Shown piece after piece: positions 1 to 22,438 of a stretch of 23,534 nt of DNA. A program made the position numbers and the translations under genes. The stretch covers positions 1 to 23,534 of the forward strand of contig DAORCY010000081.1 in assembly GCA_035345715.1 (NCBI GenBank). Direction: 5' to 3'. The first letter of the stretch is position 1; each line of letters begins with the position of its first letter. The notes under the pieces are model-generated. The model worked only from the letters and a program-made list of their open reading frames with translations, did no database searches and was not told the DNA's origin. The stretch is from Pseudomonadota bacterium. GTDB taxonomy: Bacteria; Myxococcota_A; Polyangia; Palsa-1104; JAEUJZ01.

Positions 1-994
1 CGTCGGTGCATGGTCCGTTTCATGAAAACGGTAGTTCTGCACAAACACGCGGTAGCGTCCCGCTGGGGCTTCACCTTTGCGCCAGCGGACGTTCTCTACA
101 GGCTTTGTGGTTTCGCCGCGAACATTGCGATCGACATCGAGCTCGCCACGACAACGCGACTGTTTATGGGCGTAGTAGATGTGCTCTCCCGATGGCGTGA
201 TCACATGCAGATCCAGATCATTGCGGTTGTCCCAGATCAGACTGGCGCGCACATCGACACCTTCGTACACGCCGCCCGCTGCTTCGACGCGCTTTTTGAT
301 CTCTGCATCAATGTCGCGCCGCCGCTCGGTCATCGACTTTTGCGGATAGATGAAGAACACATGGTACTTCTTTTTGAGCTCTTCAAAAATCGCAGCAGAG
401 TCCAGGTCGGACGACTCATCACGGCCCAGAATCCGACGGACCTGTTCGCGACTCACTTTGGGATAAAATCCCTCATCTCCCAGGAAGAAAAAGAATCCCT
501 TGCGACCTTGACGCAGACATTCCAGCTTCGCATGGCGGGCATAAAAGTACGCCGCCAGCTCGTAGGATTCCTGACCTGTGCCGCCGCCGCCTTCCTCGAT
601 CCAGATTTTCGACAGAACGTCATCCAGCCGATTGTCTGCTTCAAACTGTCCAACCTGGAGCGGTGCCTGATCGGAATTCGCATCCCCAATCGCCGCAAAG
701 CTCACCGCCGGACCCGGAACGTAGTTCCGCATGATGATCTGCCCGATAAACATCGGCAGCTTGTCATAGATGATGCGGGTGTCGTCGCCTCTTGATCGGG
801 TTACGTCCATCGCCACCACGATCGGCGTTTCGTTCATGCACTCGCGGATTTTTCCGTGCGGTTCCAAGATCGGATGCACACCGCGGCGCGCAGCAGACTC
901 CCCTGACGAACCATAGCCGCGATAGGTAAACACATCGCGGTTGGACGATCGCGCTTCGATCGCAATGTCCTCATCATAATTGCCACCACCCATG
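1..994 (-). CDS. von Willebrand factor A (vWA) domain protein, TerY-like; partial (3' end beyond window)
   Basis: Minus-strand frame is open from the ATG at 994-992 to the window edge; it is absent from the ORF track only because no stop lies inside the window. Translation MGGGNYDEDIAIEAR...PIVVAMDVTRSRGDD has the DxTxS MIDAS-type beta1 motif. ...EEGGGGTGQESYELAAYF supplies the MIDAS Thr and ...GFFFFLGDEGF the beta4 Asp, so this is a vWA fold. The C-terminal ~90 aa are beta-rich (IWDNRNDLDLHVITPSGEHIYYAH..GELDVDRNVRG..GRYRVFVQNY), reminiscent of DUF2135/YfaP-like modules, but that is unverified. A strong SD (GAGGGAGG) sits 4-5 nt upstream of the ATG, and the start lies 21 nt after the stop of the upstream kinase-like gene, suggesting an operon. 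Confidence 0.75.
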
Positions 995-1015
995 GGTTCC
1001 TCCCTCTGCTTTCTG

Positions 1016-2230
1016 CTACATCTCAAGCGGCAGGAAGCGATGCGGACCAAATACGTCTGTCCGAAGCTGCGCAAGCTGCTCTGCGGTTTCCCACGCATCT
1101 TGCGCACGCTGCCGCGGACTTTCCATCACCATAAACTGAATGAAACGAGCAAAGCGCCCATCGACGCGCGGAGGCAGCGTTGCTTGGCGAACATCGCCTC
1201 CCAAAAGATAGATCATTGTCTTGCCGAGCGAGTACAGATCCGATGCTGGAAGCGGCGCTTTGCGGGCCAAGACTTCCGGCGGACTGAAGTCAGGATTGTG
1301 CGCGCGGAACCCCTGCCCGGTCTTTTCCGGCGCAACAATGGAGTATGTCCAGTCGATCACAAAGACATTGTGATCGCTTGGCCGAACCAGCACATGCGCA
1401 GGCTCGACGTTGCCGTGAATGATTCCCAGTTTGTGGGCATGACCCAGCGCGGACAGAGCCCGCATCAGCACCCAGGCAACGTGTTCCGGATTGAGTCCGT
1501 CCGGGTAACGCTCGCGCACTTCATCCAGATCGAAACCATCGAGATAGGACAAGATCGATCCGGCCTGACCCGACGGTGTTTGGAACTGATCGAATATCTC
1601 TGGCAGATGCTTGCGCTGCGCGCCTTCCGCACTGTGGATTGTCCGCAAGATCCGCGCTTCATCTAGCAGCAGATCATTGTCCGCGCTCTCCATCGCAATC
1701 TTCACGGTGACTTCCGCACCGCTGCGCAATCCTGAAGTGCAGACGCCGCGATACAGCATCGCGACATCCCCTTGGGTCAGCAATTTGGTCGCGCGATAGC
1801 TTCCGCTCTGCGTCGTGATCGTAAAGTCCACAGCCGAATCCGCTGGCGGATTTGGAACACTGCGGAGACGCGGCGGCGGCGGACGGTATCCCGATTCCGC
1901 AGCGCTGTCTGTTTGGGAATCATCTCTTTGAGAGCCTGCTTCGGCACGGGTCGGTTCCGCAGCAGCACGCTCTTGTTCTAGCTCCTGCACTGCCCGCTGA
2001 TGCCAGTCGTAGATTTTGCTGAGCAGGTGTCGCGCACTGTTTTGGGCCAGGCTGTTTCCGCCAAATCGTTCAGGACGCAGCCTTCGCACCAGCACGACAT
2101 ATTCCTCTTCCAACAGAACCTGTTTTTCGTCGATGTCCACGTCGCGCAGCGCCATCGATGGAAAGACATCTTGGGTTCCGCGAGCCGCCGATAGCAGGCT
2201 TTGAATCTCGGCCAAATCGTCGTGTAGCAC
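1016..2230 (-). CDS. Ser/Thr protein kinase-like protein with degenerate catalytic loop (probable pseudokinase or atypical kinase) and N-terminal unknown domain
   Basis: A 404-aa ORF with a GTG start at 2230 preceded by GAGAGGGGG. The C-terminal half aligns by eye to the Hanks kinase fold. It has a glycine-loop-like LTQGDVAMLYRGV, a VAIK-like VTVKIA, an alphaC Glu (LLLDEARIL), a catalytic-loop position reading GIIHGNVEPAHVLV instead of HRDLKPxN, a DFG position reading IDWTYS, and an APE motif (IVAPE). A Pro-rich linker (RPPPPRLRSVPNPP) separates it from a ~120-aa N-terminal domain that is not FHA-like. Confidence 0.7.
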   Translation of the reverse strand: MLHDDLAEIQSLLSAARGTQDVFPSMALRDVDIDEKQVLLEEEYVVLVRRLRPERFGGNSLAQNSARHLLSKIYDWHQRAVQELEQERAAAEPTRAEAGSQRDDSQTDSAAESGYRPPPPRLRSVPNPPADSAVDFTITTQSGSYRATKLLTQGDVAMLYRGVCTSGLRSGAEVTVKIAMESADNDLLLDEARILRTIHSAEGAQRKHLPEIFDQFQTPSGQAGSILSYLDGFDLDEVRERYPDGLNPEHVAWVLMRALSALGHAHKLGIIHGNVEPAHVLVRPSDHNVFVIDWTYSIVAPEKTGQGFRAHNPDFSPPEVLARKAPLPASDLYSLGKTMIYLLGGDVRQATLPPRVDGRFARFIQFMVMESPRQRAQDAWETAEQLAQLRTDVFGPHRFLPLEM

Positions 2231-2390
2231 AACGCCCCCTCTCGATGTACAGGCAGTCGCCCAAAGCGACCGCCGACTACGAGGATAGGACCCCCGAAAG
2301 CCCTAAGAAAGCGGCTTGCGCAAGTGGACGAAATGCTTGGGTTATTCACGCTGCTGGGCCATCGCGAAAAAGACCGAGTACCGTATTGCG

Positions 2391-3485
2391 ATGCACATTG
2401 TGCGCATTCAGCGTGGGCCCCAGCCCCAGGTGTCCCTTCTGCAAGAACATCGCTACGAAAAGGAAAAAGACCTGGAGCGCGATCTGGCATCGTCCCCGCT
2501 CTTGATTCAGCAAGTGATGGGAACGCCGATCCACCTGCTCGCGTCTTCCTTCCGCTTGCCTGGTGATGAACGGGTCGCCGGTCTGTATATCGACAGCGAC
2601 GGAAGATTGCTTATCTGTGAAGCCCGGCTTGCACGCAACCTGGGATCTGCACGCGAAGTGCTCGGACAGCTTCTCGATCATGTCTCTGCACTGTCTCAAT
2701 ACCGAATCGAAAACCTCAGTGCCGCACTGTCCGGAAAACTAGAAGAAGTGCTGCGCACGATAAGCCGCGGCGACATCGATCGCTACACCGCACTGTGGCA
2801 ACAGGTCAGCGATCACCTCACGGCAGGACGGGTCGGAATGGCGCTGGTGCTTGATCGCGCGCCGGCCCATCTGCAGCGAATCTGTCGTTATCTGTGCCAA
2901 AACGTCAGGATTCAGTTTGTGCTGCTCACACTCAAACGATTCCGGGCAAGCGATGACAGCGACATCATTGTTCCGACGCTGATTGCGCAAGCAGCGCAGC
3001 AACAAGCGCAGGCCAACCTGCTGGAACTGGCGGTTCAGTACGCCCACCAAGGACCGGCTGCGATACAGATCGAACACATCAAACACCGCGGCAATTCCTT
3101 GGCGATCCACCCACGCGGCTGGCCGACTGCGGTCCGATATGAATTCCTGATCCATCCAGAGCAAGACTGTCGCATCGGCATCGAGCTTCGCATCGACGAT
3201 CGCGACATGCCGCAAGCGCGCGATCTCATCCGGGTGTTGGGATCGTCGGATATTTTGGAAGTGTTAAAGATTCACTTTGACAGCGCGCGGATCATCTGGG
3301 AAGCGGCGCAGAGCCCAGTCGGACTTGCCATCTTGTTTGATGCAGCAAGCGAGCCCGAAGCGCTGTCTTCCGCGATGTCGGTGTTGATGGAACTGACCTA
3401 CGCCCGAGTGACCGAGCGACTGCGGCACCTAGTCCGCCCGCCCGAATCACAACCAAAGCCGGCCAGTGGAAAAGAGGAATCCTAA
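2391..3485 (+). CDS. hypothetical protein (conserved-looking, function unknown)
   Basis: The long ORF 2316..3485 starts with TTG at 2316; the first ATG is at 2391 (MHIVRIQ...), and the true start is uncertain. Codon usage (ctg/cgc/gaa/gag-rich, GC3 bias) resembles the neighbouring real genes. It is divergent from the kinase operon and convergent with the protease gene, with a hairpin between them. A weak PD-(D/E)xK-like motif is present (GLYIDSDGRLLICEARL), but no confident domain assignment. Confidence 0.5.
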   Translation: MHIVRIQRGPQPQVSLLQEHRYEKEKDLERDLASSPLLIQQVMGTPIHLLASSFRLPGDERVAGLYIDSDGRLLICEARLARNLGSAREVLGQLLDHVSALSQYRIENLSAALSGKLEEVLRTISRGDIDRYTALWQQVSDHLTAGRVGMALVLDRAPAHLQRICRYLCQNVRIQFVLLTLKRFRASDDSDIIVPTLIAQAAQQQAQANLLELAVQYAHQGPAAIQIEHIKHRGNSLAIHPRGWPTAVRYEFLIHPEQDCRIGIELRIDDRDMPQARDLIRVLGSSDILEVLKIHFDSARIIWEAAQSPVGLAILFDAASEPEALSSAMSVLMELTYARVTERLRHLVRPPESQPKPASGKEES

Positions 3486-3496
3486 CCACGGAAGGG

Positions 3497-3523
3497 GGAT
3501 CTCCTTTTGAACAAAAGGAGTCC
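3497..3523. terminator. stem-loop between convergent genes (possible bidirectional terminator)
   Basis: ggaTCTCCTTTTgaacAAAAGGAGtcc forms an 8-9 bp perfect inverted repeat with a 4-nt loop. It sits exactly between the stop of the + gene (3485) and the stop of the - protease gene (3536). The T/A tracts lie inside the stem rather than flanking it, so this is not a textbook intrinsic terminator. Confidence 0.3.
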
Positions 3524-3535
3524 TTACACGCTCGC

Positions 3536-4465
3536 TCACTTCGGTTTTTGCAGCGTGCAGCCGGCGCGGTTTAGATCGATGTTGTTGCTTGCATCAAGAC
3601 ACGCATACACCTGGTAAAGCTGCTGTCCGTAGGCAGCGCCTTTCGTCGCTGTGATCTTGCCGCTGGCATCCACTTCGCATGGATTGTTGAGCGTGCAAGT
3701 TGCGCCGCTTTCGTTGCCGGTGTTGTTGATTCCGATCACGGCGCGCGTCTCTGCATCAATGATCGGGGAACCGGATGTACCACCGATCGTTTCGCAGCCC
3801 GGCTGCTTGAAACGGATCGAGTCACGGAACGTCCAGGTGCCTTCGCGCAGCTCTGGAACAAACGCATCAATCGAGCAGGAATAGATCCGGCGCCAATATC
3901 CGGAGACAATCCGGATCGGGGTTCCTTCTCCCGGACGGCGGGACGAAATCGTCAGCGCGGTCACGCGATAACGAGACGAAAGCTGGGCATACGTCTGCGT
4001 CAGCTTGTAGATCGCGAAGTCCGATCCAGTCATCGTCGCATACATCATCCGCTGTGCCCGCAGCGTGGCCAACGATCGCGCACTGGCATCCAGCAGCGTG
4101 AACGTCCGGCTCGACGCTTGATCCACCACCGCATCACCGGCAGGAACAAAGCCGCTCAAGCAGTGACCATTGGTGAGCACCAGCGCATAGTCATCGGGCT
4201 TCGACGTACTAAAACGGACCAGCGATCCCGAACAGTTGGAAAGCGCCACAATCGACGCGAAGTCCACCGCGGCTGCATCGATCTCATCCCAGGTTGGCAG
4301 CTTGGATTCTGCTTCGGCGGCTTCCTGCGGATTCCCAACCGGCAGTGCTTGCGCCTGGTTTTGCGCCAAAAGCTGAAACGAAGCGATCAGCGCGGCACCA
4401 GCCCAGCGACGTGAAAACAGGGATGAACTACGCGACGAAGTTGCCTTTGTTTGTGGACTACGCAT
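3536..4465 (-). CDS. secreted trypsin-like (S1 family) serine protease
   Basis: The ORF is 3536..4510. The ATG at 4465 is preferred because of a strong SD (AAGGAGGAGAGAGG) immediately upstream and a signal peptide (MRSPQTKATSSRSSSLFSRRWAGAALIASFQLLAQNQAQA). The catalytic triad motifs are TNGHC (His), DFAIYKL (Asp) and GGTSGSPII (the GDSGGP-type Ser). Several Cys are consistent with disulfides. Confidence 0.75.
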   Translation of the reverse strand: MRSPQTKATSSRSSSLFSRRWAGAALIASFQLLAQNQAQALPVGNPQEAAEAESKLPTWDEIDAAAVDFASIVALSNCSGSLVRFSTSKPDDYALVLTNGHCLSGFVPAGDAVVDQASSRTFTLLDASARSLATLRAQRMMYATMTGSDFAIYKLTQTYAQLSSRYRVTALTISSRRPGEGTPIRIVSGYWRRIYSCSIDAFVPELREGTWTFRDSIRFKQPGCETIGGTSGSPIIDAETRAVIGINNTGNESGATCTLNNPCEVDASGKITATKGAAYGQQLYQVYACLDASNNIDLNRAGCTLQKPK

Positions 4466-6717: not shown

Positions 6718-7314
6718 AGCCTACCACTCGGATGCGGCGGCGGGTCTGCAGCGAATCGGCGCGCTGGCCGGAACGCGGTCCTAGCGGCGGGCCTTTTTCT
6801 TGGGTCGCGGCGGCGGACTGGGCTGCGCCCCCGGATATCCCACGAGCCACGTCGGACATGTCAGCACAGGAGTCATACCCCCCAGAACGCAGAACGGGGC
6901 GCGAAGTTTTTTCCGATTTTGACTTGTTTTTTGTTTGGCATGTTACATGCAACTAACAAAGGGTATTGCGCACCGGAACCACCCGACCGATAAACATGTG
7001 TCCGGCCTTGTCAGATCCAAGCTCGCTTCAAGCGATTGCTTTGTCGAATGGGTTGAAAGGATCGCGCAGCGGCCCGGCCTAGACACACGGGGTTTTAGCT
7101 GAACCGATCGGATGGGATCAGCGGATTGAGCAGCCCGATGCAACAAAAAAATTTTGTGTTTTGGAACGCAAAACTCGCAAGTATGCTAAAGATCGGTTAA
7201 AAACAAACGAGCGCCCGTGCCAGCAGGAGCCGGGAGCCACTCAGGGGGGACGTTTCTTTGCAGCGGGCGCTTCGCGCGCCGTCCCGCCTGAATACAGAAC
7301 ACAGGGAGGAATCA

Positions 7315-8970
7315 ATGAGCCGTCCACTTCTCACGCGCACGCTGTCCGGGGCCATGCTTGCCCTGTCGCTCGGCGCGTGCACCGCGCCACAGGTTGGCAG
7401 CCCTTGTCCGATTCCGACGAACGCCGACAGTGCGACGCGGCTCGCGGCGGTCCAAAAGTGCTTTGGTCTCATCGCCCAGGACCACAATGACTACAGCCTG
7501 AAAAAAGATGTCGACATCCTGTTTATGATCGACAACTCGCCGTCGATGTCGCCCAAGCAGAAGGCGCTTGCCGACAACATCCCGAAGTTCATTCAGTCGA
7601 TCGAGTCGTTCGGCGTAAACTACCACGTCGGCATCATCACGTCTGACGTCGGCACGACGGTATCAGACGGCGCGACGTGGGGCGGCGGCTCCGAACCAGC
7701 CTGCGATACGTTTAGCGGCGACGATGGACGGCTCCAGGACATCACCTGCGACAAGCGCAACACCGTATCGCCCGACGCTCGCAGCGCTTGCGCGACGCTG
7801 TGTCCCGACAACCGTTTCCGGCCCACCGACGGCAGCAAGTTCATCTCGAAGATCGACGGCAAGACCAACGTGCCGCAGGACGTTCGTCCTGATCCGATGA
7901 CCGGCGCAATGGTCGACTACGGCCCGTCGAATGCATTTAAGTGCATGGCGCTCGTCGGCGATGCTGGCTGCGGTGTCGAAGGCCCGCTCGAAGCGGTCAA
8001 GCGCGCGCTCACCACCAATTCGACGACGGCGAATGCAAACTTCCTGCGCAGTGGATCGCTGCTCGCTGTGATTTTCATTACCGACGAAGACGACTGCTCG
8101 GTCAAGGCGTCTCGTCGCAGCGAGCTAAACCCCAACTACCGCAACTGCACCCCAGGCCAGCCCGACAGCTACGACTGTTACAAAGTCGATCAGCGCTGTC
8201 TTTTGCGCTCGCTTCAGTGCAACGAACCGATGAGCACGCCGGGTGGCAAGACCGGCTGCGTCGAGCGCCCGGACAACTTCCTGGAGCCGGTGAAGACCTA
8301 CTTTGACGCGCTGCGCCAGATTCGCCCCGACGATGACAAGCTGCTGATCAGCGGCATTTGGACCCAGCCAAACATCGACTCCGCCAAGGGTGGCACGGTC
8401 GGCATTGTCGGTGGTCCGCTGACGTCGGATCTCAAGCGCGACCCAGCCTGCAAAAATGCCACGGACACGACCATCGTCGGTCAGCCGCAGTTCCGCCTGT
8501 CGCAGCTTGCGACGATGTACGGTGTAGGCAAAGACGGAAGTGCCAACGCGCCGCAGCTCAACGTCTGCAACACTGCGGACTATCCGACGGCGCTCGACAA
8601 GATTGCCAAGGCGATTCAGATCAAGCTCAATCCGTGTCTACCCGTCAATGTGAAGACGATCAATGGCACAGCGATCTGCTTGGTCGGCGATGTCGACGCG
8701 AGCACGCCTGACGCAGTGCCCACGACGTACTTCCCGCAGTGCTCGAACACCTGCTGCGATGCCTGGGCCAGCAGTTCGACGCCGTCTCTCGCGGACAAGA
8801 CGATCCAAGCGGCCTGCGCTGCCGAGACCACCGACGCCTGCTTCTGCGCGGTCAAGCCCAAAGATCCGACGGTCTGCAAAGACGGCGGCACCGTGACCGC
8901 CGTGTGGCGCAAGGGCGGCGTTAACACTCCGCTCGGCAAGACCGTGAACTTCCGCTGCGCCGGCTTCTAG
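7315..8970 (+). CDS. secreted Cys-rich vWA-domain lipoprotein (paralog 1)
   Basis: The ATG at 7315 is preceded by AGGGAGGA with a 6-nt spacer. The signal peptide with lipobox is MSRPLLTRTLSGAMLALSLGAC. The vWA beta1/MIDAS motif is KDVDILFMIDNSPSMSPKQKAL (DxSxS), followed by VGIITSDVG and the beta4 motif LLAVIFITDEDDCS. Many Cys (more than 30) are spread through large insertions, consistent with an extracytoplasmic disulfide-rich protein. It ends ..VNFRCAGF. Confidence 0.75.
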   Translation: MSRPLLTRTLSGAMLALSLGACTAPQVGSPCPIPTNADSATRLAAVQKCFGLIAQDHNDYSLKKDVDILFMIDNSPSMSPKQKALADNIPKFIQSIESFGVNYHVGIITSDVGTTVSDGATWGGGSEPACDTFSGDDGRLQDITCDKRNTVSPDARSACATLCPDNRFRPTDGSKFISKIDGKTNVPQDVRPDPMTGAMVDYGPSNAFKCMALVGDAGCGVEGPLEAVKRALTTNSTTANANFLRSGSLLAVIFITDEDDCSVKASRRSELNPNYRNCTPGQPDSYDCYKVDQRCLLRSLQCNEPMSTPGGKTGCVERPDNFLEPVKTYFDALRQIRPDDDKLLISGIWTQPNIDSAKGGTVGIVGGPLTSDLKRDPACKNATDTTIVGQPQFRLSQLATMYGVGKDGSANAPQLNVCNTADYPTALDKIAKAIQIKLNPCLPVNVKTINGTAICLVGDVDASTPDAVPTTYFPQCSNTCCDAWASSSTPSLADKTIQAACAAETTDACFCAVKPKDPTVCKDGGTVTAVWRKGGVNTPLGKTVNFRCAGF

Positions 8971-9206
8971 TCCCCATGGGCAGCCGCTAACGACTGCCCC
9001 ACCCGCCTGATCTCCCCGTCGTCACGCTACAAATTCCGCAAAAACGCAGTCCTTCCGTAAGGTTTTCTTGCGTCCGTGGCCTAACCCACCAAGTAGTCCA
9101 TTGGCGGTGACTGTCGCTTGCTCTCCCCCGTTCGATCAGGTACGGTGCCGCCGAACGCCAACGACTTACACGGTTTGCGACCCCGAAATTCGCACGGAGG
9201 CTTGTG

Positions 9207-17438: not shown

Positions 17439-19064
17439 ATGGGCGGGGTGCTTGGATATCCATCGCTGCTGTGTGCAGTGATGTTGCTCATCGGCTGCGG
17501 CAGTGCGCGGACTCCGCAAGGAACGCGGACGCAGTGCACAAGCTGGAAAGACGATGTAGCACAGATCATGAAAGACAACTGTGGCAGTTGTCACAGCGGC
17601 CCGGCACCTGCGGGTGGGCTTGATACATCGGATTATTTGTCCGTCTTGGGAGGCGGTTCCCAGCCTGTTCGATCCGTCGCTGGGGATGCAAACTCCCGGC
17701 TTCTTTCGATCATCGCGAGCGACACCACATCGGATTCCCACAAGCGCATTTCCGATGCAGTCCGTGATTCGCTGCGGACCTGGATCGTGGACTGTGGTGT
17801 GTCCTACGTTCGATCGATCTATCACCAAGCCGGAATCCTAAACCCCGAAGATCCAAACGGGCAGTTTCACGGTGCGCTGCTGCGGCAAGCAAACTACAAG
17901 CTCAGCGCGTGCAGCGGCTGTCACGGTCAAGACCTGACAGGGGGCGAAGTCAAGGTGTCGTGCCTGACCTGTCATCCGCAAGGCGTGACCACCTGCGATA
18001 CGTGCCATTCCCGTCTGCCAAGTGCCCACCGAGCGCACGCAACCGGCGCTTCACTGGGTCGTCAAATCGCGTGTACAGAGTGCCATCCAAAGCGTGTCTC
18101 TTGGCTTGATCCGGGGCATGTGTTTAACAGCGATGACACCCTGCGCACGTCGCCTCCGATCATTGCATTTGGAAGCTTGGCCAGTGCGACTCCCTACGCG
18201 ATGTATCGCACAAGTCCGCCGCTGTTTGATGCCGGGACCAAGCAGTGCACAAATGTCTACTGTCATGGTGCTGTGCTCGGCGATCTCAATGCAGCGAATA
18301 CGACGCCAACGTGGACAGGACCGAGCACGCAAGCGATCTGCGGAACCTGTCACGGCGCGCCCCCTGCGAGCCATGATCCAAGCATCACCCGCTGCGTGCT
18401 TTGTCACAACCGCACGGTGGACGATGCCAAACACTTTGTCACAGGGGGTCTGCACGTAAACGGAAAGAGCGATGCAGGCGATGGCAAAGGCCAGTGCTCA
18501 TCTTGCCACGGATTTGGCGGCAGCAGTCCTTTTCAGGATCTGTTGCGGAAGACCGATACAAGCCTCGTCAGCGTCGGCGCACACGCAGCGCACGTCAATG
18601 CCAGTCACAAGCTGAGCGCTCCGATTGCGTGCTCTGAATGCCACCGCAACGACCTGCAACTTCTGGGCAGCGGCAACCTTCACAAAGCGTTCGGACAAGG
18701 TGTCACCATCTTTCCGGCCTCGCTTGCGGCGCAGCTTAGCAATCGAGAAGGAGCCAGTCCCAAGTGGGATCGCGCAGCCGCCAAGTGTTCCAGTACGTAC
18801 TGTCACGGCAGCGGCAGCAAGCTGCTGACAGACACCAGTACGACGGTGAATCGGAATCCGATCTGGAACGCAGAGAACCAAGCGTCGTGCGGATCATGTC
18901 ACGGCATTCCGCCCAAAGATGCCAACCACACCGCCACCATGCGACTTGTCGACTGTGTGACCTGCCACGCCAAGACCATGGACGCAAGCGGCACGATTCT
19001 CTTTTCTGGTCCGCCGGGAGCCCAGACCACGACGCACCTAAACGGAGTCGCCGATGGAAACTAA
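17439..19064 (+). CDS. multiheme c-type cytochrome lipoprotein (11 CxxCH + 2 CX4CH-like motifs)
   Basis: The ATG at 17439 lies 6 nt after the upstream stop, with SD AAAGGAG 8 nt upstream. It has a perfect lipobox (MGGVLGYPSLLCAVMLLIGCGSA). CxxCH motifs are CGSCH, CSGCH, CLTCH, CDTCH, CTECH, CGTCH, CVLCH, CSSCH, CSECH, CGSCH and CVTCH, plus two CX4CH-like motifs (CTNVYCHG and CSSTYCHG). The C-terminal half carries internally repeated modules (..Q.xCGxCHGxPP...C.xCH..T.D......H.NG..D). Confidence 0.85.
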   Translation: MGGVLGYPSLLCAVMLLIGCGSARTPQGTRTQCTSWKDDVAQIMKDNCGSCHSGPAPAGGLDTSDYLSVLGGGSQPVRSVAGDANSRLLSIIASDTTSDSHKRISDAVRDSLRTWIVDCGVSYVRSIYHQAGILNPEDPNGQFHGALLRQANYKLSACSGCHGQDLTGGEVKVSCLTCHPQGVTTCDTCHSRLPSAHRAHATGASLGRQIACTECHPKRVSWLDPGHVFNSDDTLRTSPPIIAFGSLASATPYAMYRTSPPLFDAGTKQCTNVYCHGAVLGDLNAANTTPTWTGPSTQAICGTCHGAPPASHDPSITRCVLCHNRTVDDAKHFVTGGLHVNGKSDAGDGKGQCSSCHGFGGSSPFQDLLRKTDTSLVSVGAHAAHVNASHKLSAPIACSECHRNDLQLLGSGNLHKAFGQGVTIFPASLAAQLSNREGASPKWDRAAAKCSSTYCHGSGSKLLTDTSTTVNRNPIWNAENQASCGSCHGIPPKDANHTATMRLVDCVTCHAKTMDASGTILFSGPPGAQTTTHLNGVADGN

Positions 19065-20316
19065 ATCCCATCAAAGACTCAAGCGGTCGATTCTGTGCGG
19101 CGCGCTGTGTTTGGCTTCCGTAGCGCGTGCGGACTCGGTCGAATTCAATGTATCGACGCTGCTGTCCGGGCGGGCCGACCCACGGGACGGAGAGATCCAC
19201 ACCGTCGTTCCGGTCTATCAATCGCTTGGTGTCACAGCGCAGATCAAGCGCCCCTATTTCGACAGCATCAACATTGTGATGTCGGGCTGGGGCTCTGTAC
19301 AACTGGACATAGGCCGTGACGAGTACTGGTCCGGAGACATCGATCTTGGCTATCTGGAAGGCAGCTTCTGGAAAAAAAGGGTGCAAGTACGTCTGGGTCG
19401 TCAGTTTGTCTTTGGTGGGGCCGCGCGCAGCACCCAGCTCGACGGTGGATCGGCGACTCTGCAAATCTACAAAGGACTTGGGATCAGCGGGTACGGGGGC
19501 GTTCCGGTCACGCCGCGTTTTTCGGTCAGCCGCGGGGACGTGGTGTTCGGCGGCAGGATGTTTTACCGCCACTCCGTGGATACCGAAGTCGGGGTGTCTT
19601 TTCACCAAGTGATGGGGGAAGGCCGCGCCGCCCGTCAGGACATCGCCGTCGATGCACGCTATGTTCCCCATGAACAGATCGCGCTGACCGGATATACGCT
19701 GTATTCGATTCCAGAAGCGAGGGTTGCGGAAGCCGATGTGGCAGCAACCTGGATTCCCAATCTGATGTTTCAGATCGGCGCCGATTATCGTCGGACAGCA
19801 CCCGATCTGTTTCTGCCGCTCAACTCGATTTTTTCGGTGTTTTCGCAAGAGACACGCGATGAAGTCGGCGGGAATGTCTTTTTCAAGCCGATCCGCAGAC
19901 TCCGTTTCTATGGCGATCTCCGCGCAGTCGTGAACATGGAAGGAGTCGGAGCGCGCGGCGGAATCAAGGCCACAGTCGCACTGGGACAGCGCGATCACAC
20001 GACGCTAAACGGCGAGCTGCGCGTACTGAAACTGCCAAACAATGGCTACGTCCAAGCGCGGCTTTACAGCACCCACAAGCTGACTCCGGCTTGGTTTGTG
20101 ACGCTGGGTGCCAACAGTTACTTTTTGGATCAACCGATAAACGGACAAGCGTTTTCGTTTACGGGAACCGGAACCGTTGCAGGCAACTTGGGTCGCGGCT
20201 TCCGAATCGTGGCGACAGGCTTTGCCGACGTGACTCCGTTTGTGGAAAGGCGCGTTGAGTTTGTCGTAAAGCTCGCGTACAACGCAACGCAAGTCTTCCG
20301 TGAGGTGCAGCAATGA
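19054..20316 (+). CDS. outer-membrane beta-barrel (porin-like) protein, candidate porin component of a porin-cytochrome conduit
   Basis: 420 aa. The start overlaps the upstream stop by 11 nt (ATGGAAACTAA). The signal peptide is METKSHQRLKRSILCGALCLASVARA-DS. The mature protein is rich in Gly/Tyr/aromatics with alternating hydrophobic stretches (VQARLYSTHKLTPAWFVTLGANSYFL; RFYGDLRAVVNMEGVGARGGIKATVALG). There is no heme motif and no obvious catalytic motif. It sits between multiheme cytochrome genes with start/stop overlaps on both sides. Confidence 0.55.
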   Translation: METKSHQRLKRSILCGALCLASVARADSVEFNVSTLLSGRADPRDGEIHTVVPVYQSLGVTAQIKRPYFDSINIVMSGWGSVQLDIGRDEYWSGDIDLGYLEGSFWKKRVQVRLGRQFVFGGAARSTQLDGGSATLQIYKGLGISGYGGVPVTPRFSVSRGDVVFGGRMFYRHSVDTEVGVSFHQVMGEGRAARQDIAVDARYVPHEQIALTGYTLYSIPEARVAEADVAATWIPNLMFQIGADYRRTAPDLFLPLNSIFSVFSQETRDEVGGNVFFKPIRRLRFYGDLRAVVNMEGVGARGGIKATVALGQRDHTTLNGELRVLKLPNNGYVQARLYSTHKLTPAWFVTLGANSYFLDQPINGQAFSFTGTGTVAGNLGRGFRIVATGFADVTPFVERRVEFVVKLAYNATQVFREVQQ

Positions 20317-21374
20317 GCGCCCGAGCCCTCCGCTGGTTTTTGCTGGCCAGCGTTCTATTTACCGTCGCCTGTGCGACATTCTGGGCCAAGATCGGTGGGG
20401 GCGACACGATCAAGGTTCCACACAGCGTCCACAGCAAAGCCAAGATCGACTGCGTGGTCTGCCACGAGCCGATTTACGACGCGCACGACATGAAAGGGGA
20501 CTTCTTTCCCAAGGAGTCAAAGTGTCTGGAATGCCACGAAGACAACAAAAAGAAAGGCGAGTGCGGATTCTGTCATTCTGATCCGATTCGCCCGACTTCC
20601 TATCGGCGGACTCCATCGACGCTGAAGCTGTCGCACGCCAAGCACATCGAGCAGACCAAAGAAGACTGCACCCGCTGCCACAAGACGCTGTCGGAAAAAG
20701 GCCAACCCGGTACGCCGCCGACCATGGAGTCGTGCTTTGGTTGCCATACCCACAAGCAGGAATACGAGCAAGGAAGCTGCGGCACCTGTCACAAGGATCT
20801 GCGCCGCTATCCGCAGAAACCGATCACGCAGTTTTCGCATCGCGGCAACTTTGTACTGGGCCATGCTCGACCGGCGCGATCCTCGCCAGAGAGCTGCGCG
20901 ACCTGTCATGAACAGACATTCTGTGCCGACTGTCATGCCAAAACGGTGTTCGCTCCGATTGAGCTGAAATTCCCAGAGCGCGCCGACAGCGATCTGATTC
21001 ACCGCGGCGACTTCATCGGCAGACACAGCATCGAAACGCGCGCCGATCCGGCATCGTGTCTGCGCTGCCACGGACAGAGCTTCTGCGAAAACTGCCACAA
21101 AGAGCAGGGCGTAAGTGGTCGCAGCGACAACCCACGAAACCCACATCCATCGGGATTCAACATTCCGGGTACGCCGCAGTTTCACGGTCTTGCAGCCCGA
21201 CGGAACATCACAAGCTGCGCAAGCTGCCACGATCAAGGTCCGCGCTCAAACTGCGTAAACTGTCACAAGGTCGGCGGACTCGGTGGGAATCCGCATCCGC
21301 CTGAATGGATGGAGCGACACGACCGTCAAGAGATCGTGCGAAACGGAATGTGTCGCTACTGCCACACGCTGTAG
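20313..21374 (+). CDS. multiheme c-type cytochrome, 13 CxxCH (probable periplasmic component)
   Basis: The ATGA start/stop overlap with the upstream gene indicates translational coupling. The signal peptide is MSARALRWFLLASVLFTVACATFWA. There are 13 CxxCH motifs in 353 aa, about 27 aa per heme: CVVCH, CLECH, CGFCH, CTRCH, CFGCH, CGTCH, CATCH, CADCH, CLRCH, CENCH, CASCH, CVNCH and CRYCH. A repeated c7/c3-like unit appears three times: SC.TCH.Q.FC..CH. Confidence 0.85.
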   Translation: MSARALRWFLLASVLFTVACATFWAKIGGGDTIKVPHSVHSKAKIDCVVCHEPIYDAHDMKGDFFPKESKCLECHEDNKKKGECGFCHSDPIRPTSYRRTPSTLKLSHAKHIEQTKEDCTRCHKTLSEKGQPGTPPTMESCFGCHTHKQEYEQGSCGTCHKDLRRYPQKPITQFSHRGNFVLGHARPARSSPESCATCHEQTFCADCHAKTVFAPIELKFPERADSDLIHRGDFIGRHSIETRADPASCLRCHGQSFCENCHKEQGVSGRSDNPRNPHPSGFNIPGTPQFHGLAARRNITSCASCHDQGPRSNCVNCHKVGGLGGNPHPPEWMERHDRQEIVRNGMCRYCHTL

Positions 21375-21436
21375 TGCTGCACAAAGCACAGACGACAACA
21401 AATCATCGCTCACACACAAGATGTAGGGAGAACATC

Positions 21437-21790
21437 ATGCGCAAAGTCCTCATCATTGCCTCGCTGCTGTCGTTTGCCCTGTCGGCTTCTGCCGATGAAA
21501 ATGATCCGCGTGTCAAGCGCGCGTGGAAAGCAAAGTGCGCATCTTGTCACGGCGAAGATGGCAAAGGCGACACCGAGCAAGCACGCAAAAAGTTCGGTGG
21601 TCCACTGCGCGATCTGACCGATCCGAAAGTGCAGGAAAGCTTCAAGGACGCCGATCTGAAAGACAGCATCACCAAGGGCAAGACCGTGCAAAAGGACGGC
21701 AAAGAACTGAAGATGCCAGCGACGCCAGAGATCGCGGGTGATCAGCTCGATGGTCTGGTGATGTTCGTTCGCAAGCTGGCCAAGAAGTAA
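21437..21790 (+). CDS. monoheme class I cytochrome c (periplasmic)
   Basis: The ATG at 21437 is preceded by AGGGAG with a 6-nt spacer. The signal peptide is MRKVLIIASLLSFALSASA. A single CASCHGE motif and a downstream Met (ELKMPATPE) serve as the probable sixth ligand. It is small (117 aa) and Lys-rich. Confidence 0.8.
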   Translation: MRKVLIIASLLSFALSASADENDPRVKRAWKAKCASCHGEDGKGDTEQARKKFGGPLRDLTDPKVQESFKDADLKDSITKGKTVQKDGKELKMPATPEIAGDQLDGLVMFVRKLAKK

Positions 21791-21835
21791 CCACGCTTCA
21801 CTTTCATACAGCAGCGCAGCGTTCAGGGAGGGAAG

Positions 21836-22438
21836 ATGCTCGCGGTACTGTTTGGACTGGCGATTCTGCTTGCGGCGCTGATCCTGATTCGGCCAGCCCA
21901 CGCGAGCAAGACGCTGGCATTCACAGGTCTGTTTGTGCTGCCGGTGACTGCCAGCGTGATTGGTGTCGACAGACATATCGAAAACTCGAAACAGACTTCT
22001 TTTTGTACTTCGTGTCATGTGATGCAAAAGCACGGAAGGAGTCTGCTTGTCGACGATGCTACGCTCCTGGCGGCGTCCCACTTTCAGGGTGGACGGATTC
22101 CGCGTGAGCAAGCCTGTTTTAGCTGCCACACCACGTACACGATGTATGGTGGTCTACAGGCCAAGCTGCGTGGCGTAAAGCATGTACTCGTAAACTACTT
22201 TGGCAAAATTCCGGACAAGCTCGCGCTGTATGAACCATACAACAACCGCGAGTGTCTGCACTGCCATGAAGGCGCGCGGCGCTACCTCAAAGGAGAGACG
22301 CACAGCGCCGAGCCAGGACGGATGGAAAAGATGCGGCGCAATGAGCTGTCGTGCGTAAGCAAGGACTGCCATGACACGGTGCATCTTACGAGCGAAGTCG
22401 ACAGCATTCCGCTGTGGAAACCGGAGGCGGCCAAATGA
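21836..22438 (+). CDS. NapC/NirT/NrfH/CymA-family membrane-anchored tetraheme cytochrome (quinol dehydrogenase)
   Basis: The SD is AGGGAGGGAAG. An N-terminal TM helix (MLAVLFGLAILLAALILIRPAHA..) is followed by the family-typical first heme motif FCTSCHVM. Further motifs are CFSCH and CLHCH, plus a CX4CH variant (CVSKDCH). Its 200-aa size fits the family. Confidence 0.8.
   Translation: MLAVLFGLAILLAALILIRPAHASKTLAFTGLFVLPVTASVIGVDRHIENSKQTSFCTSCHVMQKHGRSLLVDDATLLAASHFQGGRIPREQACFSCHTTYTMYGGLQAKLRGVKHVLVNYFGKIPDKLALYEPYNNRECLHCHEGARRYLKGETHSAEPGRMEKMRRNELSCVSKDCHDTVHLTSEVDSIPLWKPEAAK

Follow-up and report, generated by a model that had tools for sequence, protein, structure and literature searches.

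The pairing of a kinase-family protein with a von Willebrand factor A (vWA) protein is already known from the TerY-P and ArnB/ArnC systems. The TerY-P triad, in which a TerY vWA protein is combined with a Ser/Thr kinase and a PP2C phosphatase, was reportedly described by Anantharaman, Iyer and Aravind in 2012, and Gao et al. reportedly counted it among defence systems in 2020. Proteins with a vWA domain also team up with MoxR AAA+ proteins in the adaptor pairs CbbQ-CbbO, NorQ-NorD, RavA-ViaA and BchI-BchD. In MoxR-vWA systems the vWA proteins are Mg-dependent peptide-binding adaptors, as restated in PMC9503650. The ArnB-ArnC/ArnA module regulates the archaellum of Sulfolobus (PMC12852372, PMC6509490), and ArnC phosphorylates ArnB (PMC12852372). 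A further operon, DRA0331-0334 of Deinococcus radiodurans, harbours vWA, Ser/Thr protein kinase, FHA and PP2C genes according to a preprint (bioRxiv 10.64898/2026.01.23.701218). The present analysis concerns a kinase-like gene and its vWA-family partner located at one end of a 23,534-nucleotide stretch, referred to as the window, which corresponds to contig DAORCY010000081.1 of assembly GCA_035345715.1, from a bacterium placed in Myxococcota_A by GTDB.

The locus is one copy of a widespread and so far unnamed cassette, composed of two genes and, in most lineages, of three; tentatively, its products may assemble into a nucleotide-binding adaptor complex. The two genes recur together across distant lineages, and the kinase fold has a catalytic loop that has been rewritten in the same manner throughout the family.

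Organization and conservation of the gene pair

Both genes are encoded on the minus strand of the window. The kinase-like gene (1016..2230) opens with a GTG codon, closes with a TAG stop (1018-1016) and specifies a protein of 404 residues, in which a J-like domain and a linker precede a protein-kinase-fold domain. A spacer of 22 nucleotides (994..1015, minus strand) separates it from the ATG of the partner gene at position 993. Because this spacer carries a Shine-Dalgarno-like AGGGAGG (1005-999), placed 5 nt ahead of the ATG, the arrangement indicates co-transcription or coupled translation of the pair. Scans of positions 1-3600 detected no promoter-like site and a single terminator-like site, which lies inside an open reading frame (ORF) and falls below shuffle expectation. 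An Rfam scan for a riboswitch 5' of the operon, covering the window and five loci, returned tRNAs only. The vWA-family gene is represented by its 5' part (1..993, minus strand), as its 331 codons run without a stop into the window edge. Full-length relatives measure about 490 residues: the 1,517 close homologues, mostly 484-506 residues long and 66-89% identical, span Myxococcota, Planctomycetota, Spirochaetota, Acidobacteriota and other phyla, and the last residues encoded in the window, YRFHETDHAPT, agree with the full-length type. A previous sequence-only reading of this DNA had proposed a kinase-like gene, 21 nt and a vWA gene. The order, the co-orientation and the tight spacing stand, but the spacer is 22 nt long (1015-994), and both the J domain at the N-terminus of the kinase-like protein and the truncation of the vWA gene by the window edge had been overlooked.

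The pair is not peculiar to the window. In a sample of 80 genome loci collected through the vWA family, a kinase-like gene is found immediately 5' of the vWA gene, on the same strand and across a gap of 2-142 nt, in 62 cases, which confirms a pairing far beyond chance. These loci are distributed over more than 10 phyla and include Myxococcota, Ca. Uabimicrobium, Acidobacteriota, Leptospiraceae, Desulfobacterota, Omnitrophota, Riflebacteria and several lineages of the candidate phyla radiation (CPR). In Nannocystis a TPR protein occupies the position of the kinase-like gene. Public databases label members of the two families 'hypothetical protein', 'YfaP family protein', 'serine/threonine protein kinase' or 'inactive serine/threonine-protein kinase VRK3'.

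A third gene often accompanies the pair. Counted by tblastn within 10 kb, a divergent adenylosuccinate-synthetase-like (PurA-like) gene is present in 54 of the 80 loci, usually directly 3' of the pair. A first-pass ORF clustering had missed it, as clusters at high-GC loci were fused by spurious antisense ORFs, and the tblastn counts were used instead. The PurA-like proteins reach 141-223 bits, where equivalog cutoffs lie near 400, and keep the GDEGKG P-loop and the QAAH His; their presence is independent of the type of N-terminal module borne by the kinase-like protein (48/61). Less frequent companions are a PK-barrel-only protein (17/80 loci), NMNAT (14/80) and NadE (10/80), while PncA, NAPRT, PRK/NRK-like proteins, ADP-ribosylglycohydrolase (ARH) and NUDIX proteins appear sporadically. 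At four loci from Acidobacteriota and CPR bacteria (L028 6212-14322, L048 5565-16055, L084 6551-13973 and L077 2156-9447) the pair sits inside an operon-like run that comprises a NadE+NMNAT fusion, a PRK/uridine-kinase-like protein, the PK-barrel-only and PurA-like proteins, PncA, NAPRT and ADP-ribosylglycohydrolase; such runs amount to a near-complete NAD salvage set.

Neighbouring families were also surveyed among 120 immediate-neighbour ORFs of the 80 loci, families with at least 2 matches being retained and ORF calling being imperfect in high-GC loci. No PP2C, FHA or Ter gene recurs beside the pair in the 80 loci or in the Pfam-labelled contigs L085-L096, and the AAA+ family is absent among the recurrent neighbours and in these contigs. 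In the window a no-hit ORF, a trypsin-like protease and a TonB-dependent receptor are encoded 5' of the kinase-like gene, and a family scan of the window ORFs found no PP2C or FHA gene upstream of it. The earlier remark that no PP2C lies between or upstream of the two genes is borne out within these limits.

Phages and megaplasmids possess the cassette too. A tblastn search of INPHARED recovered the vWA domain in about 200 Bixzunavirus (Bxz1-like) mycobacteriophages at 42% identity (E 2e-34). The triad of Mycobacterium phage MoMoMixon (NC_023733, locus L097, 3634-7407) consists of gp256, annotated 'Ser/Thr kinase', in which a J domain with HPD is joined to a degenerate kinase; gp257, a short vWA form with the same ...DRL end as the bacterial proteins; and gp259, annotated 'PurA-like', with the small ORF gp258 in between. 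On the Rhodococcus opacus megaplasmid pLPS8 (locus L100, 3930-8019) the order is J-pseudokinase, vWA, adenylosuccinate synthetase and NUDIX hydrolase. A vWA gene followed by a PurA-like gene was also encountered in two IMG/VR contigs, the sole loci to emerge from a long-form pattern scan of viral contigs.

The window edge lies close to a polymorphic junction (1..36, minus strand), located after codon N320 (nt 36-34), beyond which the last 33 nt represent the uninterrupted allele. In sister contigs (L002-L004, L095 and L096), taken from further assemblies of this population, the sequence of the vWA gene changes here to ...GIAVFKKPMVS, with a stop 11 codons on, and is followed by a gene for a phage-type tyrosine integrase (L002 3174-4415; L095 10960-12202). 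An element is inserted in, or replaces, the 3' third of the vWA gene in these contigs, and the end of the window 33 nt past the junction is probably an assembly break at the polymorphism. The rest of the interrupted gene was not found past the integrase in the sister contigs, all of which end soon after it.

Architecture of the kinase-like protein and its partner

The protein-kinase-fold domain, delimited by conservation and by alignment to CK2alpha, spans residues 133-404 (1019..1834, minus strand). The Pfam Pkinase profile (PF00069) matches the window protein with 39.8 bits against a cutoff of 31.7, and this score above the gathering threshold, together with the bilobal kinase fold, places the protein in the superfamily. 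The full catalytic set of PF00069 is nevertheless missing, as the HRD Asp, the loop Lys and the loop Asn are all replaced. The retained positions are the VAIK Lys (K177 in VTVKIAM, nt 1702-1700), the alphaC Glu (E191, nt 1660-1658) and the DFG-position Asp in D293-W-T (nt 1354-1346), which resembles the DWG of CK2. The Gly-rich loop is shrunk to A-x-G-D-x-[A/S], and P-P-E, starting at P317 (nt 1282-1274), stands at the APE position. The catalytic loop itself reads H272-G-N-V-E-P-A-H279 (1394..1417, minus strand) where the canonical sequence is H-R-D-L-K-P-x-N: HRD has become HGN with Asn for the catalytic Asp, the loop Lys is Glu and the loop Asn is His.

The best solved relative of a profile built from 24 family members is CK2α (E 3.5e-15). 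In the alignment of the two, 'GiiHgniePaHvlv' falls over 'GIMHRDVKPHNVMI' and 'liDWsya' over 'LIDWGLA'; the register of the catalytic loop is confirmed because the HGN segment and the DW motif align onto CK2alpha. The motifs quoted in the sequence-only reading, namely the Lys, the alphaC Glu, the DFG-position Asp in DWT and a loop HGNVEPAH in place of HRDLKPxN, are all present in the register then assumed. Assignments to MkoA, PD-T4-6, MADS6 or lanthionine synthetase kinases by PADLOC and NCBIfam models were rejected, as these matches cover the generic kinase core only and remain far under the curated cutoffs (65 versus 460 bits).

The same pattern extends through the family. H272, P277, W294 (in 62), D331 and R375 (63/63 each) are invariant in 63 synteny-defined orthologues, and in the alignment of these 63 sequences K177 and E191 (61/62 each), N274 (60/62) and D293 (in 60) are nearly so. 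In a census of 183 members the loop is HGNx[E/D]PxH in 142 and HANxEPxH in 23 (together 165/183), the catalytic Asp occurs in one protein only (P0174, HGDIEPAH), and a DW[CSTAG] motif is found in 173 of 175 sequences. Degeneracy increases in distant members though the gene pairing persists: the loop is HGAITPDN in gp256 of phage MoMoMixon and HTAVTADN in the protein of the Rhodococcus megaplasmid, whose DFG has turned into AGW with loss of the Asp. The degenerate loop is strictly conserved and a rule of the family, which fits a pseudokinase or a non-canonical enzyme rather than recent decay, and the earlier prediction to this effect gains weight from the census.

Residues 1-91 (1958..2230, minus strand) form a helical J-like domain, defined by hhalign comparison with HPD-type N-termini, in which R52-P53-E54 (nt 2077-2069) is aligned in place of the HPD borne by most relatives in the family alignment. 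The N-terminus of the window clade matches the HPD-type N-terminus with 97.4% hhalign probability (E 1e-11), RPE or NPE standing opposite HPD, and the HPD-type profile matches solved J domains (DNAJA3 at E 5e-7, also E. coli DnaJ and auxilin). The Pfam DnaJ model scores 25.4 bits in the orthologue of Ca. Uabimicrobium (L015), and precomputed PF00226 matches are available for many members. The window protein is thereby homologous to the J-domain helical hairpin and devoid of the HPD tripeptide. According to established J-domain biochemistry, loss of the HPD His should leave a J domain unable to stimulate Hsp70; because this His is replaced in the window protein (RPE), its J domain is not expected to do so. 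A low-complexity Pro-rich linker (residues 92-132; 1835..1957, minus strand), unaligned and variable in the family and predicted to be disordered (model confidence score, pLDDT, below 50 for residues 106-125), leads to the kinase fold. N-termini vary through the family: 52 of the 183 members possess an HPD-bearing J domain, and there is a J-like domain without the His in at least 60 sequences, a Zn-ribbon plus 'xIDQSSARVVDNS' domain in about 35 and a transmembrane (TM) helix in about 10. One metagenomic protein of 447 residues (P0184) has a TIR domain, in the position of the J domain, fused N-terminally to a degenerate kinase-like domain with the loop HANIEPTH. These architectures show a swappable N-terminal module.

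The vWA partner begins with a conserved segment, MGGGxYDxDxAxxARSxNxDxFxYxGY (residues 1-49; 847..993, minus strand), which is modelled with low confidence; in 75 sequences M1, G2, G4, Y6 and R15 are invariant and F22 is near-invariant. The vWA domain that follows (residues ~50-240; 274..846, minus strand) tests positive for a Rossmann-like fold. It contains residues like those of a MIDAS, an adhesion site that depends on metal ions: D63-x-T65-x-S67 (nt 807-793), T139 in GGGGTGQES (nt 591-565), conserved as [T/S]139, and D173 in GDEG (nt 477-475), all of them conserved. A conserved MIDAS-like site, putatively binding a metal, is in this way shown for a cytoplasmic vWA protein. VWA and TerY models of Pfam, NCBIfam and PADLOC gave no match at E<=1 for the window protein or five full-length homologues, and a vWA-family profile searched against PDB sequences produced chance-level matches only (E about 0.1). 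Identity of the partner across phyla is 60-70%, for example between Planctomycetota and CPR bacteria. An exhaustive hidden Markov model search (E≤1e-3) collected 8,304 matches, including variants of about 320 residues that lack the sandwich domain and have a canonical DxTGS.

This sandwich, an all-beta, DUF2135/P-domain-like domain of residues 245 to about 370, starts within the window (residues 245-331; 1..261, minus strand), as indicated by model secondary structure and a weak P_proprotein match of 16.4 bits. A helical C-terminal domain and a basic ...RL tail fall outside the window. The AlphaFold2 model of the 89%-identical P0002 (pLDDT 79), which like all structure models used here is a prediction, comprises an α/β domain at ~50-240, the all-β sandwich at 245-370 and a helical region at 385-475. 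The earlier guess that the vWA domain is followed by a DUF2135/YfaP-like region holds roughly: DUF2135 (PF09906) has no match in the cut window protein and stays at 13.5-14.3 bits in full-length homologues against a gathering threshold of 22, but the same sandwich reaches 35.8 bits in another architecture (P0278), and NCBI names P0033 'YfaP family protein'. The sandwich on its own (query residues ~227-369) is encoded by hundreds of Ackermannviridae/Vi01-like and other large phages (records H44-H70), such as Salmonella phage Det7 (KP797973, 28766-29125) and Klebsiella phage 0507-KN2-1, and it also occurs, in up to five copies, in bacterial Zn-ribbon plus C-type-lectin proteins.

Possible modes of action

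According to the tentatively favoured interpretation, the kinase-like protein would be no conventional Ser/Thr kinase: as a pseudokinase, or an atypical weak enzyme at most, it would bind nucleotide and serve as adaptor or switch. It would join the vWA protein in a complex, and the MIDAS site of the latter would grip a client by an acidic or phospho motif. The output would be set by the N-terminal module, ancestrally through recruitment of DnaK/Hsp70 by the J domain, so that the pair would be akin to a MoxR-vWA 'activase' pair in which Hsp70 substitutes for the AAA+ motor. As client or target, the PurA-like enzyme would be the most likely, or else adenine/NAD nucleotide homeostasis. In the window clade the J domain would no longer stimulate Hsp70 and the pair would probably be a stand-alone scaffold or switch. 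A broader proposal, possible but doubtful, regards the pair as the core of an undescribed three-component system: a pseudokinase adaptor tethered to a J domain (or to TM or TIR modules), a highly conserved vWA/beta-sandwich protein with a MIDAS, and a GTP-dependent ligase of divergent PurA-like type, with the PK-barrel protein and NAD-salvage enzymes as frequent additions. Such a system might couple Hsp70 or another output to the control or remodelling of a nucleotide-metabolising enzyme, or might sense and restore adenine or NAD pools in stress or phage-host conflict.

Several considerations weigh against the adaptor interpretation, in which everything past architecture and synteny is inferred. 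The closest full-length relatives of the window pair (L005, L006 and L088-L092) have no PurA-like gene within 10 kb, and in these genomes the pair stands alone among varying housekeeping genes. The link between J domain and Hsp70 cannot be general because the window clade and at least 60 further sequences have lost HPD, and because TM, Zn-ribbon or TIR modules elsewhere stand in for the J domain; moreover, neither dnaK nor grpE was seen in the neighbourhoods of the pair. The salvage genes that lie next to the pair in CPR genomes could belong to an unrelated housekeeping operon. Finally, N274, E/D276 and H279 are strictly conserved along with K177, E191 and D293, a pattern that a genuine catalytic site of non-canonical type could explain just as well.

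This last point leads to the main, though rather unlikely, alternative of an atypical but active enzyme, with which the invariance of these six positions fits equally well. ATP turnover would proceed via a relocated or alternative catalytic residue, candidates being E/D276 in the window subfamily and the Asp at x of P-D-N in the phage/actinobacterial subfamily, and the enzyme might phosphorylate the vWA partner on the helical domain or the tail at its C-terminus, in the manner of ArnC acting on ArnB, or might catalyse some other nucleotide transfer such as AMPylation. However, the catalytic base is missing in 182 of 183 members and the Lys that contacts the gamma-phosphate is swapped for an acid, while no PP2C, other phosphatase or FHA reader is conserved. 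Since distant pair-linked members lose the DFG Asp too (AGW), what is kept throughout the wider family cannot be catalysis. A role in biological conflict, be it anti-phage defence or phage counter-defence and takeover, is distinctly unlikely. The kinase-like and vWA proteins would here constitute sensor and adaptor, the N-terminal J, TM or TIR module the effector or output, and the PurA-like, NAD-salvage, ARH and NUDIX proteins would manipulate or restore nucleotide pools. The NAD-salvage, ARH and NUDIX associations speak for it, and so do the patchy distribution over more than 10 phyla, megaplasmids and about 200 Bixzunavirus phages, which is suggestive of horizontal transfer, and the swapping of N-terminal modules with its TIR fusion. 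Yet a vWA protein that keeps 60-70% identity from phylum to phylum does not resemble fast-evolving defence genes, the pair is surrounded by housekeeping genes (gyrA, ybeY, mreBCD, aconitase) and not by defence islands, and it is found even in CPR genomes of 1.3 Mb (L084). Although the defence kinases MkoA, PD-T4-6 and MADS6 are the best PADLOC/NCBIfam matches of the kinase domain, these matches are generic (65 versus 460 bits) and the vWA protein has no PADLOC model match; likewise, the integrase-bearing element that abuts the vWA gene in sister contigs disrupts this gene and does not carry it.

The sequence-only reading had compared the locus with the TerY-vWA/Ser-Thr kinase/PP2C triads of Ter neighbourhoods. 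A TerY-P-type phosphorylation triad, in which a TerY-like vWA protein is regulated by a Ser/Thr kinase and PP2C has been lost or resides elsewhere, would be consistent with a vWA gene that adjoins a kinase-family gene on the same strand, and related operons with vWA, Ser/Thr protein kinase, FHA and PP2C genes do exist, as the preprint on D. radiodurans DRA0331-0334 describes (bioRxiv 10.64898/2026.01.23.701218). The resemblance fails at three defining features: the vWA protein matches no VWA/TerY profile or PADLOC model, PP2C is absent, as FHA and Ter genes are, from the window and from the recurrent neighbours in the 80 loci, and the HRD Asp is missing family-wide (present in 1/183). In addition, the recurrent partners are different, namely PurA-like, PK-barrel and NAD-salvage proteins. 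A triad of this kind is very improbable.

Further genes in the window and relation to described systems

Divergently transcribed from the pair, an ORF of 389 residues in the window (2316-3485, plus strand; 364 residues in public contigs) is without a match in Pfam, NCBIfam or PADLOC; it occupies the same position in L006, a syntenic Myxococcales metagenome-assembled genome, at 75% identity, and is not kept in other loci. About 9 kb from the pair, the plus strand encodes a major-vault-protein homologue of 978 residues (11048-13984), with matches to Pfam MVP_shoulder (66.6 bits), Vault_3 and Vault_4. The vault-associated vPARP has a vWA domain. A link between the vault homologue and the pair was considered and rejected because the two do not co-occur in other loci. 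Directly 5' of the vault gene are two tandem paralogues of 570 and 556 residues (7258-8970 and 9204-10874, plus strand), about 54% identical to each other and without Pfam match, which are kept in L006. On its other side, an EF-hand protein of 320 residues with several calcium-binding motifs (14190-15152, minus strand) precedes a multihaem c-type cytochrome cluster (15004-22438, plus strand) with MtrC/MtrF-like domains II/IV, cytochrome c7, NapC/NirT and mono-haem cytochrome c, which suggests a putative extracellular electron-transfer locus.

No description of this pair or triad was found in the literature searched, which does not prove that none exists. In about 200 sequenced mycobacteriophages the genes are annotated merely as 'Ser/Thr kinase', 'hypothetical protein' and 'PurA-like'. 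At minimum, two protein families without annotation emerge from the analysis, together with a conserved operon overlooked by current annotation. If the pseudokinase-adaptor or the atypical-enzyme interpretation were true, the cassette would offer a tractable bacterial and phage model of non-canonical kinase-fold function, for which Bxz1 on M. smegmatis, Rhodococcus or Leptospira biflexa could be the hosts, and would hint at a possibly new connection of Hsp70 co-chaperones and vWA adaptors with purine/NAD metabolism.

Comparison with described systems reveals partial likenesses. With GAK the family shares a protein-kinase fold and a J domain in one polypeptide, but the domain order is reversed, and GAK is catalytically active and has no vWA partner. 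With VRK3, whose name some members bear, it shares a canonical kinase fold, a retained ATP-site Lys and Asn for the catalytic Asp; the family is nonetheless bacterial and phage-borne, with an invariant loop of its own (N-x-E/D-P-x-H), a CK2-like DW[CST] and N-terminal J, TM or TIR modules, and the likeness is convergent, not orthologous. The MoxR-vWA pairs differ by their AAA+ protein, for which there is no adjacent gene here; by analogy, the chaperone link would be provided by a J domain (Hsp70) located on the pseudokinase. The ArnB/ArnC module differs in that ArnC is catalytically canonical and the FHA reader ArnA and PP2A belong to the system. The vWA partner has no detectable sequence relationship to ArnB, and only the vWA domains superpose: whereas the ArnB sandwich is split by the vWA insertion, the sandwich here follows the vWA domain in the model and is dispensable in the variants of about 320 residues, so that the split beta-sandwich and the ArnB_C domain of ArnB-like proteins are both lacking. 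As in TerY-P, the gene for a cytoplasmic vWA/MIDAS protein lies beside a eukaryote-like kinase-family gene, but the window pair adds the J domain, the beta-sandwich and the helical domain, and the third gene is PurA-like. The cassette is set apart by the loop rewritten family-wide, the J-domain fusion, a partner outside the Pfam, NCBIfam and PADLOC families and the recurrent PurA-like third gene.

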